A DNA stretch of 25,740 nucleotides. It comes from a bacterium (GTDB lineage: Bacteria; Zhuqueibacterota; Zhuqueibacteria; Oceanimicrobiales; Oceanimicrobiaceae). The stretch is from positions 1-25,740 of the forward strand of contig JBHHXN010000064.1 in assembly GCA_046757025.1 (NCBI GenBank). The letters run 5' to 3'. The translations under genes were made by a program, and so were the position numbers. The notes below the pieces were generated by a model. That model made no database searches. It had not been told where the DNA came from and saw nothing but the letters and a program-made list of their open reading frames with translations. Positions 17,736 to 25,740 of this stretch are shown in pieces (positions within the stretch are counted from its first letter, which is position 1; each line of letters begins with the position of its first letter).

Positions 17736-19715
17736 TTAGAGGTTCAAATTCGCTTTAACCCAGTTTTCCAGGCCTCCCATCTTGATCAATTCCTGCGCGG
17801 CGGTACCTACCGCTGGGAAAGAATATTCTTTTCCCTCAGCCTCCACTGACGCCCTTGCAAAGTCAACCCGAGCGGTGATGCCCGTGCGCACCGTGAGTTG
17901 TTCTGACCCAAATTTCGATTTTAAATCCGCGATCAGCTCAGGCACTTCCAGGGTGAGAAAACCATTGTTTAAAGCATTTCGTTTGTAAGTTTCGCTAAAA
18001 GAGCCGGCGATGACCAGCGCGATGCCGCGATATTTTAGAGCCGTGGCAGCCTGTTCCCGAGAGCTGCCGCTGCCAAAATTGAATCCTCCTGCCAGGATGT
18101 CGCCTTCCTGCACCCGATTTTTAAAATTTTCATCGTAATTTTCCATCACCACCTGCGCTTGTTGTTCCGGTGTGAAATCGTCGATGTAGGTATATTTACC
18201 CGGATAAATGCCGTCGGTATTGAGATTATCCTGGTGACAGAAAAGCAGCGCACCCTGCAGGCTTTCCGGGAAACCAGCGATGATTTTGATGCAGCTGCCC
18301 GCCCTTTGCGGCCGTTCATGGAGGCGAATCTCACCCCAGGGCCGGGTTTGGCTCCAATCCCCTGGATAATCGATAAAGCCTGCCAGAGCAGAAGCCGCTA
18401 CCACCGCTGGTGAGCTCAGGTAGGCTTCTGCGTTGCGGGAGCCCATGCGGCCTTTAAAATTGCGATTGGTGGCGGAAACGCCCACTTCACCGTCTTTTAG
18501 GGTGCCCGTTCCCAGGCCAATGCACGGTCCACATCCCGGCGGCAGCGGTATGGCGCCCGCTTCCACAAGTGCCTGCCAGTCACCGCGCTTTTCGCTATCA
18601 GCCTGTACTTCGCTGGAAGCTGCCGCCACGTAGAGCTCGACGCCTTCGGCGACTCTTTTGCCGCGCATAATGTGAGCCGCGGCAGTGAGATCTTCCACCC
18701 GGCTGTTGACACACGAAACCAAATACGCTTTGTGGATTTGAACCTTGCGCTTGCGGATCTCCGATATCGGAGTCATATCTTTCACGGTGTCCGGACCGGA
18801 AACGTGCGGTTCCACCGTACCCAGATCCATCGTGATTTCTTTGGCATAAAACGCATGGGCATCAGCGTTGAGTGTGGTTAGCTCGTTTTCCAGTTGCGCA
18901 ATGCGCTGCTCATTGACACGTGGATGCTCACCACGGCCATCTGCGTCCGAGGGCACTCCAGCCAGCCCGCGTTTGCGGATGGTTTCGGCCCTTTGGCGCA
19001 GCCAGTTGATGGTGATAGCATCCACTCTGAAAACGCCGGCCAAGGCGCCCCATTCCGTTGTCATGTTGGCGATGGTCAGTCGTTCATCGATAGACAAATT
19101 CTGCACACCGTCCCCGGTAAACTCCACCACGTGATTCAAAACTTCGTCCTGATTGAACAACCCGCACAAAGTGATGATGACGTCTTTGCCCGTTACGCCG
19201 GCTTTCAACTCACTTCTGAGCGTCACTTTTGCCACCGGCGGCACCTGCCACCAGGTGCGTCCGGTGGCCCAGATGGCGGCGGCATCCGTGCGCACGATGG
19301 GCGTACCCAGACAACCGATTCCTCCGTACATGTTGGAATGGCTGTCCGAGGCCACCACCAGGGCGCCGGGCCAGGCATAGCCTTCTTCCACCATCACCTG
19401 ATGACCGATGCCGCGACCAGCAGGATAAAAATCTACGCCCATTTCTGCGGCAAATTGCTCGATGGCGGCATACTTTTGCAGATTCTTTTCGCTGGTATTT
19501 TGAATGTCGTGATCGATAGTGAAAATCGGCTGCCGTGGAAAGGCGACATTCGACGCACCGATGCTGCGAAACTTCGGAATCACCGCGCCGGTGTTGTCAT
19601 GGGTCATGACATGAGCGGGTTTAATGGAGATGTAATCGCCGGCGTGAATTTCAGTACCCGCTTCTACATCGACAGCAAACCGCTGGGCAATTTTTTCAAT
19701 CATGGTTTGCGGCAT
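17736..19715 (-). CDS. lysF: Homoaconitase (single-chain, fused large+small aconitase-family domains; LysF/Lys4-like)
   Basis: MTHDN, IDHDIQN, GRGIGHQ, ASDSHSNMYGG, RTDAAAIWATG.TWW, Fe-S cysteines VSCVNSR and GCGPCIGLG, SATNRNFKGRMG, and swivel domain NLNTDGIYPGKYTY / NFGSGSSREQAA. Confidence 0.85.
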   Translation of the reverse strand: MPQTMIEKIAQRFAVDVEAGTEIHAGDYISIKPAHVMTHDNTGAVIPKFRSIGASNVAFPRQPIFTIDHDIQNTSEKNLQKYAAIEQFAAEMGVDFYPAGRGIGHQVMVEEGYAWPGALVVASDSHSNMYGGIGCLGTPIVRTDAAAIWATGRTWWQVPPVAKVTLRSELKAGVTGKDVIITLCGLFNQDEVLNHVVEFTGDGVQNLSIDERLTIANMTTEWGALAGVFRVDAITINWLRQRAETIRKRGLAGVPSDADGRGEHPRVNEQRIAQLENELTTLNADAHAFYAKEITMDLGTVEPHVSGPDTVKDMTPISEIRKRKVQIHKAYLVSCVNSRVEDLTAAAHIMRGKRVAEGVELYVAAASSEVQADSEKRGDWQALVEAGAIPLPPGCGPCIGLGTGTLKDGEVGVSATNRNFKGRMGSRNAEAYLSSPAVVAASALAGFIDYPGDWSQTRPWGEIRLHERPQRAGSCIKIIAGFPESLQGALLFCHQDNLNTDGIYPGKYTYIDDFTPEQQAQVVMENYDENFKNRVQEGDILAGGFNFGSGSSREQAATALKYRGIALVIAGSFSETYKRNALNNGFLTLEVPELIADLKSKFGSEQLTVRTGITARVDFARASVEAEGKEYSFPAVGTAAQELIKMGGLENWVKANLNL

Positions 19716-19834
19716 GGTCACATCTTCCTATTTTTTAATTTTGTGAAGCGTTAATTTATAGTAACTCGTCACCCAGTTTTGTCATCCAGCCGGACGCTTG
19801 CTTTTCTATAAAATTCATGGCCATTTTTCGTTGA

Positions 19835-21538
19835 CTATAAAAACTGTCTGGCAAAATAACGGGCCGTCAGTTTCTCACCGGTGGCTTTTTCAATCATATC
19901 ATTCCAATAAAATTGCTTGCCCGGCTTAAACACCTCTTCAACGAGATATTCTCCCACCGACTTCTTACCCGCAAAACTTTGTGGCTGCGAGTCGTCAACC
20001 TCCAGCACATGGTTGATGATGTAATAATACAGTTGCGAGGCCAGCAATTCTCCCATCAGATAGTTGTGATAATAAGCCGGATAGAGCGCTACATGGATTT
20101 TGGCTGCCCAGTCCGGCGCATGGCGGTTTGCCGGGCGGGCGACCATCTGATATTTTTCAACCAGCTCCCACCAGAGATGATTCAAATCCTGCTGAGGATT
20201 TTCATACATACTCTTTTCAAAACGATACATCACCTGCGCCCAGCGGCTGAACACCAGTTGCTCGAGCCGCAGCGACTTGAGACTGGCGTCGGCGAGGCTC
20301 TGAATTTCCGATTCCGAGACTCCCAACACATCCCGTAACCAGGCCGGGTTGGAAGCAAAGCGTCCAAACAGCATGGCGATAGCTTCGGTGGTAAACGTGT
20401 GAGCCGGCTCCCGCAGTACCCAGGGTAAGTTGCGATGGTTGAATTTGTCATACACTGCATGCCCGAATTCATGTAGCATGGTGTTCATCCAATTGTAATT
20501 AGGTTTCACGTTGCAAACCACTCGCACGTCCCCCTGTTTGTCGATATCGATGCAGTAAGCATGCTGATATTTGCCCTCTTTTTCGAACAGGTCACTCTTC
20601 GCAATGAGATCATCGATGGGCAAACCGAGACTGGCGTAGTAGGATTTGGTGATTTCCACCACATCTTTATTTTGGAATAATTTATCCAAATCCACCGGAT
20701 AAATCCGCGGCGCTTCCTGGAAAAATCGGTTTTGATAGTGCCAGGGTTTGAGCTGTTCTTTCGGGATTTGGTATCTGGCAGCGAGGTAGTTATCAACATC
20801 CGATTTCACCTCCGCGAAAGAGTCGCGAGTCAAGGTATCTAATTCATTAAAAAGAGATTCTATCTCTTCGGGATCCTGTTCGCTCAAAGAAAGCTGCATG
20901 GTGTGATAATTATCAAATCCCAATTCCTGTGCCGCTTCATTGCGCATTTTCACTAATTTCAACACATCGGCTGCAACCACTTCTCCGATTTTTTTACTCG
21001 CCAGCCAGGCTTTTTTTAATTGTGCTGAATCGGTTGAATTTTTGAGAAGGTCTTCGATTTCGTTGTCGGTCAATTTCTTACCATCGATTTCCGCTCTGAA
21101 GGTGTTGTATTTTTTTTCTAACTCGCTCTGGAAATCGATCATTTGTTTGAGCTTGTCTTCATCGATCTGTTTCGAGAGGTAGGCATTATAAAGCACCTCT
21201 AATTGTCTTTTTAACAAAGGATTGGAAATGGCGTTTGATTGTTTAAGTGTGGATAATTTAACAAAATCTTCTTTCGACGCATAAATTTTACTCAGTTGAA
21301 ATTCCAGATCGGCCGACCTTTTGTAATCCTGTTCAGCGCCGGAAATGGTGGCCTCAAAATAAGCCAGCGCCTGCTCCTTGCTTAAATCGATGACTTTGGC
21401 TTCATACTCACTTAAAAATCGTTCAAAATCCCGGGTCATTTCTGTTTTCTCCTGATTTCCACAATTCGCGAACAATACGGCCATCAACAAAATCATCGTC
21501 GTAAAAATATTCGTAAATGGCGATTTAATGTTTTTCAT
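19835..21538 (-). CDS. Gluzincin metallopeptidase of M2/M3 type, predicted lipoprotein
   Basis: HEFGH zinc motif with downstream TEAIA glutamate; D.A.K.H...YPAYYHNY; signal peptide ending LFAN-C. SD GGAGG. Confidence 0.85.
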   Translation of the reverse strand: MKNIKSPFTNIFTTMILLMAVLFANCGNQEKTEMTRDFERFLSEYEAKVIDLSKEQALAYFEATISGAEQDYKRSADLEFQLSKIYASKEDFVKLSTLKQSNAISNPLLKRQLEVLYNAYLSKQIDEDKLKQMIDFQSELEKKYNTFRAEIDGKKLTDNEIEDLLKNSTDSAQLKKAWLASKKIGEVVAADVLKLVKMRNEAAQELGFDNYHTMQLSLSEQDPEEIESLFNELDTLTRDSFAEVKSDVDNYLAARYQIPKEQLKPWHYQNRFFQEAPRIYPVDLDKLFQNKDVVEITKSYYASLGLPIDDLIAKSDLFEKEGKYQHAYCIDIDKQGDVRVVCNVKPNYNWMNTMLHEFGHAVYDKFNHRNLPWVLREPAHTFTTEAIAMLFGRFASNPAWLRDVLGVSESEIQSLADASLKSLRLEQLVFSRWAQVMYRFEKSMYENPQQDLNHLWWELVEKYQMVARPANRHAPDWAAKIHVALYPAYYHNYLMGELLASQLYYYIINHVLEVDDSQPQSFAGKKSVGEYLVEEVFKPGKQFYWNDMIEKATGEKLTARYFARQFL

Positions 21539-22914: not shown

Positions 22915-24189
22915 TCACTTGTGCAATTTTAACAGAACTTTCTGACCAAAATCCTGTTCAAATTCATCATTGGTTTGGTAAACAAAACCAAAGGTCGCCT
23001 GCCAGATCGCGGCTTTTTCCATGCAAAGATACATGAATACTTTTCCGTGCCAGGGGCGGAACGCCTGGTACATGGTTTTGAACAACGCAATTTTGATGTC
23101 GTCCGGGTAGGTCAACTTACCGTGCGGGTCCGGCACCATTTCCATCTGCAGAGTTTTGGTGGCGTTGCCCAGCTTTCGAATTTTATTGATAACGGGTTTG
23201 ATCAAAGTGACGGAGCCGAACGAAAGGAACAGCACCTCTTCGGGGAGAAATTCCTGCAGCAGAGTCGTGGCGATTTGGGGGTAAGCTTGCTGCCATCCCT
23301 CGTAATAAACCATCGGATGAAAATGAAAAGCCACTTTGATCCCTTTCTCTCGAACCGAACGAGCTGCCGATATCCGCTCTGACAAATCCGCGGTAAAATG
23401 CTCTTCGTTTTGAATGATCGTAGGGGTGTTTAAAGACCAGCTGCACACCACATTTGAAGGAATGCGATATTGCATAAAATAGTCGATGTTTTTGGACTTG
23501 GTTTTAAATTCCAGTAGAATGTTGGGGTTGTCAGCGGCGAACCGACACAGAGCATCCAGATTGCCGTTGCGGTTGCCCCACGACAGAGAGTCGGATGCCT
23601 GGCCGGTGCCAAAATGATAAAATCGCTGGGGATCAAGTTGAATGGCTTTTAACTTTTTTTCAAAATCCGCATCGAAAACGAACTCATCGCTGTAAAACGT
23701 CTGAATGGTGCAATAGGAACAGCCAAACACACAATTTTCCACCGCATCGATAGTGCGCAAATTACAACAAACCGTGTCTTCGGAAGCCACCGGACACATG
23801 CCGTGAATCTTTTTGTCCATCTGCACAGTGGAGATTTTATATTTATCCCTTTGCTGCGGTTTTGGCAGTCCATTTTGGGGATAGGCTTTGGGTCGATGTT
23901 TCAATTCTCGCACATGGGCTCGCAACGCCTGCAACAGTTGCTTTTTAGCAGCCACGCCATTTGAGCTGAATTGCCTTTCTCGGCTCAGCCACCAGGACGG
24001 CAAACCGCTTTCTCTCCACATGAACAAATCCCGACAAATCTCCACGACCTCTCGAAACTCTTGAAACGTGAATCGGTGAGTAAATGCCAAACGCTTGATA
24101 AACTTCTGCTGGTCTGGATTTAACCGGGCAAACAACTCCTGCTTTTCGAATGATTGAAATTTCAAATCGTAATCAATTTTGGCAGCCAT
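22915..24189 (-). CDS. Spore photoproduct lyase-like radical SAM protein with N-terminal extension
   Basis: NCVFGCSYC, GQASDS, LEFKTKS, WSLN, ERI.AA, FHFHP and YLCME. ATG at 24189 (the ORF-track extension to 24390 overlaps the 75-aa gene). Confidence 0.82.
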   Translation of the reverse strand: MAAKIDYDLKFQSFEKQELFARLNPDQQKFIKRLAFTHRFTFQEFREVVEICRDLFMWRESGLPSWWLSRERQFSSNGVAAKKQLLQALRAHVRELKHRPKAYPQNGLPKPQQRDKYKISTVQMDKKIHGMCPVASEDTVCCNLRTIDAVENCVFGCSYCTIQTFYSDEFVFDADFEKKLKAIQLDPQRFYHFGTGQASDSLSWGNRNGNLDALCRFAADNPNILLEFKTKSKNIDYFMQYRIPSNVVCSWSLNTPTIIQNEEHFTADLSERISAARSVREKGIKVAFHFHPMVYYEGWQQAYPQIATTLLQEFLPEEVLFLSFGSVTLIKPVINKIRKLGNATKTLQMEMVPDPHGKLTYPDDIKIALFKTMYQAFRPWHGKVFMYLCMEKAAIWQATFGFVYQTNDEFEQDFGQKVLLKLHK

Positions 24190-24215
24190 GCAATTCTTTT
24201 TACTTCGAATGTCCT

Positions 24216-24443
24216 CTACAGAGCTTTGAATTCGCCGGTTAGTTGTATTTCTACTGGTATGCCTTCGACGGTTTGCGGAATTTGTGCGCGAATTTGCGGT
24301 TTGTCTTCTTTCACCGAAACGATGATTCCCACGACTTCCCCGGACGTCATGCCGATACCCACCCCCACCACGCCCGGCATAGCCATCCATTTTTGTTCGT
24401 ATTTGCGCTTGACATTTTTTATTTTAATAAACTGCTCAGACAT
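24216..24443 (-). CDS. 75-aa stand-alone homolog of the N-terminal domain of the adjacent protease
   Basis: PGVVGVGIG..IIVSV..IPQTVEGIPVEI..TGEFKAL aligns with protease residues ~5-84. Confidence 0.8.
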   Translation of the reverse strand: MSEQFIKIKNVKRKYEQKWMAMPGVVGVGIGMTSGEVVGIIVSVKEDKPQIRAQIPQTVEGIPVEIQLTGEFKAL

Positions 24444-24461
24444 TTTAGTACTTGAGTTGTA

Positions 24462-24488
24462 AAGTCTTGACGTTTTTTGTCAAGACTT
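24462..24488 (-). promoter_or_regulatory. Perfect 10-bp inverted repeat overlapping a TTGACA -35 box
   Basis: AAGTCTTGAC-N7-GTCAAGACTT. The minus strand reads TTGACA-N16-TACAAC, then ATG 12 nt later. Confidence 0.55.
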
Positions 24489-24489
24489 A

Positions 24490-24640
24490 AAGTCACAAAT
24501 CGCAAAAGCCAAATAACAAATAAAACTCAGTACCCAATTTACGAAATCTCAAACAAAAACAAAGTTTTTAAAGTGGTGTTAAAGCTGTTGATTTGTTCCT
24601 TGTGATTTGAAGTTTGAGATTTATTTGAAATTTAGGATTT
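24490..24640. repeat. Inverted arrays of degenerate 7-mers
   Basis: AAATCGC AAAAGCC AAATAAC AAATAAA ... AAATCTCAAAC on the left and GATTTGT...GTTTGAGATTT ATTTGAA ATTTAGG ATTT on the right. Perfect 11-bp IR at 24544-24554 / 24612-24622. Confidence 0.6.
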
Positions 24641-24725
24641 CCGGCTTAGTTTACTCTATTGCTTATAAGTTTATACATTATTCCTGAAAGTTTGTTCGTG
24701 GATTTAATGCATTTTCACACTCACT

Positions 24726-25727
24726 TCACGGTAAATTTACCTGCAACGCTTGAAACACGTTTTCTATGCGATTGATGATGGTACTGTTGGTGCTGCCGGC
24801 AAACAACAATCCTACCAGTTTATTATCTTCGCTCAGTACGGCCGACCCACTGTCGCCGCCCTGGCTCACGGCGCCGGCCATTAGCTGATCCACAAAGGTC
24901 GCAACCTTGTTCGAACCATAACTGACCCGGGAAGTAACGTCGATCTGTAAAATCGAGCCGGTGGTAAACCCCGTGGTGCGGCCGCTCTTTTTGATGCTCA
25001 TGCCCAGGGTGCCGGTTGCGGTACCACCCAGGGCGCCGATATTCAATATTTCATTTTTAACATCGCTTTCAGAAATGGGTTCCGCTATGGCACAATCTAC
25101 CAGATTGTCTGCGGCGGCGGCACGCATGGGCTGCAAACGAGTTTGGCTTCCCAGCAATTTCGCCAGCCCGTTAAGGATGGCCGCCGTGGCGTTGCCGATG
25201 GAGCAGGGAGTGGACCCCTGATCAAATTCAATGGGGACAAACTCGCTCAGCCGGGCAATCAGATCCTGAGCGCTGCTGCCGCCGTCGGCGGGGCCGGGCT
25301 GCAAAATCGCATCTCCCACTGAAGCGTCGTTGCTGTTGGCCAGCACATGATTGTTGGAAAGGATAAACAGTTTGCCGTTTTTCTTCACCAAAAATCCCAG
25401 GGTGCCGGCGGTGATTTGAAAATGCCCGATGCTCACGCCGCCGGGCGCCGGCCGAAACTTGTCCGTGGGCTGCTGCAGAGCATGAATGATCCCGGTGGGG
25501 TACACATCGGTTGGAATGTTTTGCATTTGTGATGGAATGAGTTCGCGCTGGGATAACGCCTGTTTGGTTTTTTTGGATTCCACCGAGCAAATAATGGACA
25601 GCTCGGTAGTTGGTTTGCCTTCGGTTATTTTGTAACCGATGCCCGTTGCCACAACATTGGGCTTGGAAAACAATTCTCTTTTAATTTCAGGTAAAAGTTT
25701 TCGTGTATCTTCTAAATTTGTAGCCAT
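24726..25727 (-). CDS. Nal1-like trypsin-fold (S1) serine protease, no signal peptide
   Basis: RPAPGGVSIGH..ITAGTLG, catalytic His in SNNHV, Asp in VDCA, KSGRTTG and Ser in GGDSGS. SD GAGGAG. Confidence 0.85.
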   Translation of the reverse strand: MATNLEDTRKLLPEIKRELFSKPNVVATGIGYKITEGKPTTELSIICSVESKKTKQALSQRELIPSQMQNIPTDVYPTGIIHALQQPTDKFRPAPGGVSIGHFQITAGTLGFLVKKNGKLFILSNNHVLANSNDASVGDAILQPGPADGGSSAQDLIARLSEFVPIEFDQGSTPCSIGNATAAILNGLAKLLGSQTRLQPMRAAAADNLVDCAIAEPISESDVKNEILNIGALGGTATGTLGMSIKKSGRTTGFTTGSILQIDVTSRVSYGSNKVATFVDQLMAGAVSQGGDSGSAVLSEDNKLVGLLFAGSTNSTIINRIENVFQALQVNLP

Positions 25728-25740
25728 GAAACTCTCCTCG

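Follow-up and report, generated by a model that had tools for sequence, protein, structure and literature searches.

A free-standing relative of the NAL1 ATP-binding domain is encoded beside NAL1-like serine proteases in bacteria

Introduction

On the stretch of bacterial DNA analysed here (the window: 25,740 nucleotides, the whole of contig C64 in an assembly of 5.96 Mb that is 94.8% complete), a serine protease gene is accompanied by a gene of only 75 codons, the product of which resembles the N-terminal, or front, domain of the same protease. The host genome holds one copy of each gene, and the contig is present in four DNA runs, all from one hydrothermal-vent study. The locus raises the question of where this free-standing domain (hereafter the solo) came from, whether its pairing with the protease is conserved, and what it could do to the enzyme. 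The initial annotation had proposed a two-part protease with an inhibitor or adaptor module acting in trans, the solo being a copy of its own neighbour's domain and the pair possibly a toxin-antitoxin-like system.

Results

Genes and intergenic features of the locus

The features of the locus are collected in Table 1. The GAGGAG sequence sits 6 nt 5' of the protease ATG, and the contig ends 13 nt 5' of the gene; because of this site, and because close homologues begin at the same Met, a signal peptide hidden past the contig end is unlikely. Neither the protease nor the solo has a hydrophobic stretch in its first 24 residues, in agreement with the initial description of the protease as free of a signal peptide. 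The solo had also been credited with a candidate promoter of its own; a perfect TTGACA followed after 16 nt by TACAAC does exist, but the -10 element is weak, the window solo has no Shine-Dalgarno site, and a consensus scan of 24100-25740 found neither promoter nor terminator on the minus strand, so the promoter is an unproven candidate.

Table 1. Positions of the features of the locus within the window
Feature	Position	Strand	Basis
NAL1-like cytoplasmic S1 (clan PA) serine protease, 333 aa	24726..25727	-	ORF, Pfam, NAL1 structure match
Protease front domain, residues 1-84; homologue of the NAL1 ATP-binding domain	25476..25727	-	profile alignment
Protease catalytic domain, residues ~92-333	24729..25454	-	structure superposition
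Catalytic triad codons H127; D211; S293	25347-25349; 25095-25097; 24849-24851	-	alignment + sequence
Protease Shine-Dalgarno GAGGAG	25734..25739	-	sequence
Solo: free-standing 75-aa NAL1_N-like domain, without ATP-site hairpin and lysines	24216..24443	-	ORF, alignment, profile, model
Perfect inverted repeat, 10-bp arms, 7-nt spacer, just 5' of solo	24462..24488	.	sequence; function putative
TTGACA (overlapped by inverted repeat); weak -10 TACAAC beside repeat	24478-24483; 24456-24461	-	

The inverted repeat in the intergenic stretch 24444-24580 occurs as a single copy in the assembly, and the hairpin was therefore rejected as a genomic repeat for this assembly; in 3 metagenome runs the stretch has many short, high-depth look-alike contigs. 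The RNA fold of the intergenic stretch was not significant (z -1.6), and two other loci (L002 and L003) carry different palindromes at the corresponding place. A radical SAM gene resembling spore photoproduct lyase (22915-24189, minus strand) begins 26 nt past the solo stop; it was rejected as a part of the module, because the linkage was found only in the window and in one other genome (G012). Further along the minus strand lie a lipoprotein metallopeptidase gene (19835-21538) with Pfam M2 (ACE-like) and M3 matches, and what we take to be a single-chain aconitase-family gene (17736-19721) with fused large and small subunits and homoaconitase- or LeuCD-like motifs.

The protease resembles rice NAL1 in both of its domains

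Pfam analysis of the protease placed Trypsin_2 above the cut-off and NAL1_N below it (E 6e-4), and a profile comparison matched the front domain to NAL1 with an E of 6e-15. The protease was modelled with AlphaFold2 without templates (pLDDT 87; linker 81-90 of low confidence), and the best Foldseek match of the model was rice NAL1 (E 2e-14). The model superposed on NAL1 residues 89-444 with a Z of 27.6 over 286 residues (rmsd 3.6), and since this superposition spans both domains, the two are arranged as in NAL1. The catalytic domain superposed on streptogrisins and alpha-lytic protease with Z of 20-22 and rmsd of 1.8-2.0. As first annotated, the catalytic triad H127/D211/S293 is present, and it is invariant in 33 of 33 aligned proteases.

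In rice NAL1, an ATP-binding domain spans residues 89-172; it stays uncleaved and makes trimer contacts with the protease domain; the ATP is structural and is held by R120, R122, K123, K139, I121, D166 and V167, and the hexamer is required for activity (PMC12012508). The NAL1 front domain is needed for stability, and disabling the ATP site leads to aggregation (PMC12012508, section 6). In the alignment to the 7Y77 chain, K33 of the window protease corresponds without gaps to NAL1 R120 and K52 to K139; V75 matches V167, D74 matches D166 (structural end-point) or D164 (HMMER), and NAL1 R122 and K123 are unmatched. All 25 of the cytoplasmic-clade proteases have K33, G37, K52, D74 and V75; the G-x-K-x-x-x-G hairpin motif is missing from 33 of 33 secreted proteases. 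It is missing in its strict form from all 55 solos as well, of which L070 alone retains the lysines and the Asp by eye, so that the ATP site has been lost in 54 of the 55. The front domain of the protease is a match to the uncleaved ATP-binding domain of NAL1, and the conservation of these residues suggests that the cytoplasmic protease binds ATP.

The solo is an old paralogue under purifying selection

The initial annotation had aligned the whole solo with residues ~5-84 of the protease, and this homology was borne out in three ways. Residues 16-75 of the solo aligned by BLASTP with residues 16-84 of the protease at 32% identity (E 1e-5, 69 columns); the Smith-Waterman score of 65 was reached in 0 of 5000 shuffles, the shuffle maximum being 53; and a profile of the solo family matched one of the front-domain family with a probability of 98.7% and an E of 2.9e-16 over 77 columns. 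The idea that the solo copies the domain of its own neighbour fared worse: it is nearer to the front domains of 35 other proteases, the neighbour ranking only 36th of 60. In a domain tree, a quick one of 80 columns with many open forks that was used only for the grouping of solos against their own neighbours, the window solo clustered with ten other cytoplasmic solos and away from the protease beside it. Recent duplication of the neighbour's domain was rejected on both grounds, and the solo is an old paralogue in a large, old family. L070 looks like a second origin of the solo.

Eight comparisons of the window solo gave pN of 0.28-0.45 against a saturated pS of 0.70-0.89, and three close pairs of relatives gave pN of 0.02-0.04 against pS of 0.18-0.36. 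The solo is under purifying selection, in agreement with its first description as an intact gene and not a recent fragment.

A profile built from 35 solos matched 1465 proteins between 40 and 144 aa in length; at 50% identity it matched 5236 clusters, a number that takes in the front domains of full-length proteases. Of the 120 that were listed among the 1465 short matches, none belonged to a Pfam family, the window solo had no match in Pfam or NCBIfam, and a Pfam scan of the 35 solos found no family common to more than 3 of them and no pro-domain match; against the sequences of solved structures, the profile gave one chance match only. Solos can be seen in databases: the ESM Atlas contains unnamed clusters drawn from several phyla, and in addition clusters with a length of 81-85 aa and a Pfam NAL1_N assignment. 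The source record of one solo homologue gives candidate division KSB1. Tandem double or triple solo domains occur (P0121, P0122, P0150-P0154), one solo is fused behind a DUF3221-like lipoprotein domain (P0134), and many signal-bearing solos have a Cys pair in the hairpin.

The solo model (pLDDT 87, with residues 71-75 under 50) resembles both the NAL1 front domain and the alpha-lytic pro region, but the scores are modest (Z 4.7-5.1) and unrelated folds score alike: the comparison with 2PRO gave a Z of 5.1 (rmsd 3.0, 67 aligned) and that with NAL1 92-175 a Z of 4.8 (rmsd 2.1, 68 aligned). Foldseek ranked the alpha-lytic pro region with the top matches, at TMq values of 0.58-0.59.

The end of the solo is conserved

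The solo was first described as terminating at the domain boundary, and its last residue indeed matches L84 of the protease. The tail is predicted to be disordered and is nevertheless conserved: G70 of the solo does not vary (35 of 35), and the core ends in Leu in 116 of 120. A stop follows this residue in 25 of 32 signal-less solos, and in the 21 that bear a signal it is followed by a stop (8) or by Pro (11). The corresponding junction in 60 proteases has Pro only once, and the junction residue itself varies among them (L 31, M 11, Y 6, Q 5). The peptide bond before Pro withstands S1 proteases, and in subtilisins the tail of the propeptide enters the active-site groove. The title of one PDB entry names contacts of the pro C-terminus with the active site. 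That the solo ends at a cleavage site is unestablished, because the mature N-termini of relatives align further on: that of SGPB at residue 94 of the protease model and that of alpha-lytic protease at residue 92, not at 85.

Solos and proteases are linked and co-inherited

Among 151 genomes of the same phylum, the solo profile was matched in 80 and the protease profile in 94. Of 67 solo hits in short frames, 47 lay within 3 kb of a protease on the same strand, 45 of them downstream; the frequency of solos beside such proteases, to which the initial annotation had pointed as a check, thus shows the pairing to be conserved elsewhere. A solo adjoined 11 of 57 cytoplasmic-type proteases (those with a contiguous profile match, one of which was later found to have a signal peptide) and was not adjacent to the other 46; it adjoined 36 of 50 proteases with a split match, mostly secreted, and was not adjacent to the other 14. 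The pairing counts leave out 26 further protease matches and seven fragments, and kin within them are not independent. In a tree of catalytic domains, 12 of 13 members of the window's subclade had a solo, and in the sister cytoplasmic subclade none of 12 had one within 1.5 kb.

The remaining 20 of the 67 solos lay away from any protease listed. No protease was found in up to 2.5 kb on each side of the 16 that were checked; a protease is present at another place in 16 of the 20 genomes, and among 64 solo-bearing genomes 60 have one that is listed.

The pairing extends past these genomes. In metagenomes, 7 of 10 solos directly follow a cytoplasmic protease and an eighth precedes one; in a second phylum, 7 of 201 genomes were matched, four of which had a solo and a protease 0-1.1 kb apart; and on a B. 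thuringiensis plasmid a 76-aa solo lies 13 nt upstream of a protease. Over 34 pairs, solo similarities and partner similarities co-vary (r 0.60, against a maximum of 0.20 in 2000 shuffles), which speaks for co-inheritance only. A contig scan with the single protease sequence returned 3 loci only; the closest proteases span family and class lines, and 9 of 20 genomes of the same family were unmatched. Altogether, these data reveal a conserved two-gene module made of a NAL1-like S1 protease and a free-standing domain of the same family as its front domain.

Around the window-type cassette, no third gene was common across families. Three-gene cassettes consisting of a protease, a protein of ~280-320 aa without a Pfam match and a solo were seen in two genomes (L095/L101 in G298 and L099/L103 in G286). 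Relatives occur on plasmids and in two viruses. Clostridium plasmids, including L135 (NZ_CP029460.1), carry arrays of up to 21 cytoplasmic-protease matches; 8.9 kb of C. novyi plasmid arrays hold seven paralogues, with the ATP-site motif kept, and no solo. The Aeropyrum coil-shaped virus (L137, HE681887.1) encodes at 1977-2957 a full-length NAL1-like protease with a front domain and has no solo within 2 kb. Protease copies broken by in-frame stops or frameshifts were seen at L102/L094 (G221), L106, L107 and L108, and the solo downstream of the G221 copy is intact. L106 and L107 were dropped as informative front-domain-less proteases, as they look degenerate and have no solo nearby.

Solo-type domains are fused behind catalytic domains

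In 8 of 29 longer homologues and at 3 genome loci, a domain of this family stands C-terminal to the catalytic domain and ends in the same register. No front domain was seen in these C-terminal fusions, two of which (P0138 and L098) are partial. For each of the 11 C-terminally fused domains, the solo profile outscored the front-domain profiles, once very narrowly, and in N-terminally fused controls the front-domain profile outscored the solo profile in 6 of 6. The simplest history is that a protease fused with its downstream solo and the front domain was lost, and under this history the solo can take the place of the front domain on the catalytic domain. The solo is thus probably able to replace the front domain, and the fusions, which appear to be the best evidence of a physical partnership, suggest that it acts on the catalytic domain.

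Compartments mostly agree, and signal-bearing solos retain an internal start

With signal peptides called by a hydrophobicity threshold, the predicted compartment of solo and protease agrees in 28 of 37 pairs (13 with both signal-less, 15 with both signal-bearing) and differs in 9, seven of which combine a secreted protease with a signal-less solo and two a cytoplasmic protease with a signal-bearing solo. After one unanchorable solo had been dropped from the count, 20 of 21 signal-bearing solos were found to retain an ATG or GTG at the start of the cytoplasmic form, and 15 of these codons have a Shine-Dalgarno site; as a control, such a site precedes 16 of 233 internal ATGs in proteases. Likewise, of 85 database proteins that bear a signal, 78 have a Met in the 7-residue window at this position; among 840 background windows, 33 contain one. 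An internal start with a Shine-Dalgarno site at the beginning of the core domain is seen at L016, L018, L019, L029, L030, L033-L035 and L041. The pattern suggests either that one gene gives two forms or that a signal was added to an older cytoplasmic gene.

Discussion

Of the two-part protease with a trans-acting module, the conserved two-gene pairing and the C-terminal fusions uphold the general idea; the solo's origin as a copy of the neighbour's own domain and a toxin-antitoxin character were not supported. As to what the solo does, we consider it an even call that it binds the catalytic domain of the NAL1-like protease and holds the enzyme inactive, as an inhibitor or cap acting in trans. 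By such a mechanism, the front domain of the protease would hold ATP and assemble the subunits into an oligomer, as it does in rice NAL1, and the solo, having neither an ATP site nor a catalytic domain, would dock on the surface that the front domain normally uses and thereby cap the oligomer or break it up. The solo's C-terminal tail, which is conserved, free and predicted to be disordered in the monomer, and which has a Leu, Phe or Met end, might then reach the substrate cleft like that of a cleaved pro-region. The solo would serve as an optional safety catch in a compartment where the protease could do harm, and would be released by dilution or degradation.

There are precedents for such an arrangement. 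The alpha-lytic pro region is active in trans, and such regions fold their proteases and can also inhibit them (bioRxiv 2020.08.30.274340); stand-alone mimics of propeptides inhibit C10 and S8 proteases (PMC2873492, PMC6993865), and Spi and the staphostatins are cytoplasmic guards against secreted proteases (PMC2873492). An inhibitory cap is favoured over the alternatives because of the tail pattern, the pro-region analogy and these C10 and S8 mimics. The gene linkage, the fusions and the matching compartments of most pairs are counted in its favour too. Against it stand the modest structural scores of the solo, the uncleaved and stabilising front domain of NAL1, the mature N-termini of relatives at residues 92-94, the 20 unlinked solos, the nine compartment mismatches and the variable junction residue of the proteases.

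A positive partner, either a folding catalyst in trans or an ATP-independent structural subunit that completes the front-domain contacts, is an unlikely alternative that nevertheless draws on several of the same observations. Since the front domain of NAL1 is uncleaved and stabilising, a free copy might help instead of block; and since an inhibitor permanently fused to the C-terminus would need removal, the fusions fit a helper equally well, the more so as those without a front domain carry exactly one copy per catalytic domain, as if it were needed. Folding in trans is what the alpha-lytic pro region does for its protease (bioRxiv 2020.08.30.274340), NAL1 aggregates with its ATP site disabled (PMC12012508), so that a copy independent of ATP could restore folding where ATP is low or beyond the cytoplasm, and nearly all of the window protease's subclade has a solo. 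However, the window protease has an intact front domain of its own, most cytoplasmic-type and some secreted-type proteases do without an adjacent solo, and a stop or Pro after the tail is the pattern expected of a cleavage-resistant inhibitor.

It is improbable that the solo is a substrate adaptor or signal relay, which would bind some third molecule and then either present it to the protease or trigger the enzyme. The tandem solos, the DUF3221 lipoprotein fusion and the unlinked solos point to a domain used in several settings, and two cassettes do have a gene of ~300 aa between protease and solo, but no third gene accompanies the window-type cassette across families, and the solo has lost, not gained, ligand-binding loops. 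More improbable still is a solo with a separate function that simply accompanies the protease, or one that is a decayed duplicate: the unlinked solos with no protease nearby would fit independence, but most of their genomes hold a protease elsewhere, and purifying selection, the fusions and the conserved gene order argue against chance and decay alike. A toxin-antitoxin or anti-phage switch, with a toxic protease and the solo as its obligatory antidote, is very improbable, because the two-gene, patchily distributed cassette and the relatives on plasmids and in viruses must be set against the 46 cytoplasmic-type proteases without an adjacent solo, which show that linkage is not obligatory, the solo-free C. 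novyi array, the usual downstream place of the small gene, and the lack of any PADLOC match (library from 2023) for 3 of 3 proteins at E 0.01.

A wider proposal can be made, tentatively and with the balance leaning somewhat against it: that the module is a widespread, undescribed bacterial switch ancestral to plant NAL1, in which an ATP-stabilised oligomeric S1 protease has its assembly controlled by a separate, ATP-blind copy of the assembly domain, two start codons give membrane-anchored and cytoplasmic forms, and fusion of the solo has produced circularly permuted proteases. With such a switch, clan PA would have its first stand-alone regulator of the pro-domain type, and the ATP-binding domain of NAL1 would be connected with the pro region of alpha-lytic protease. 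Should the solo prove to be a regulator, it would represent a new family of inhibitors or subunits for S1 proteases. It would also offer a bacterial model, small and easy to work with, for NAL1, a rice yield gene in which the ATP-binding domain is without a clear regulatory role, and would put to a natural test the idea that the NAL1 domain and the alpha-lytic pro region are one and the same device. The search, conducted with most subscription journals outside of it, found no publication on bacterial NAL1-like proteases, their solos or such a partner of S1/NAL1 type.

Among known systems, rice NAL1 (PDB 7Y77, 8PMI, 8PN2; Pfam NAL1_N PF25608 and Nal1_C PF25819) is the closest to the window protease, with which it has in common the two domains, their arrangement, the triad, two of the four basic ATP ligands and the Asp-Val pair. 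Unlike NAL1, the window protease is bacterial, is without NAL1 residues 1-88 that the NAL1 hexamer needs, and is accompanied by a separately encoded front domain lacking the ATP site; no such partner is described in sections 5-6 of PMC12012508, and 'bacteri' does not occur in its main text. Alpha-lytic protease and streptogrisin B (PDB 2PRO, 3PRO, 4PRO) resemble the system in a catalytic domain that superposes and in a pro-region domain that the solo model resembles, but pro regions of the alpha-lytic type are cut from a secreted precursor, whereas here a separate gene accompanies a cytoplasmic protease. In NAL1 the front domain stays attached, and a cleaved pro-region is an unproven reading of the window front domain. 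Spi beside SpeB (C10), the MEROPS I9 proteins and SUB1-ProM (S8) are likewise products of small genes that lie next to that of a protease, the N-terminal domain of which they mimic (Spi: PMC2873492; SUB1-ProM: PMC6993865). As in Spi- and I9-type systems, a separate small linked gene is homologous here to the N-terminal domain of its partner, although Spi, the MEROPS I9 proteins and SUB1-ProM differ from the solo in having unrelated folds and acting on unrelated protease clans. The locus adds a clean split of the ATP site between protease and solo, C-terminal fusions of the solo type, the two-start pattern and evidence against a toxin-antitoxin role.
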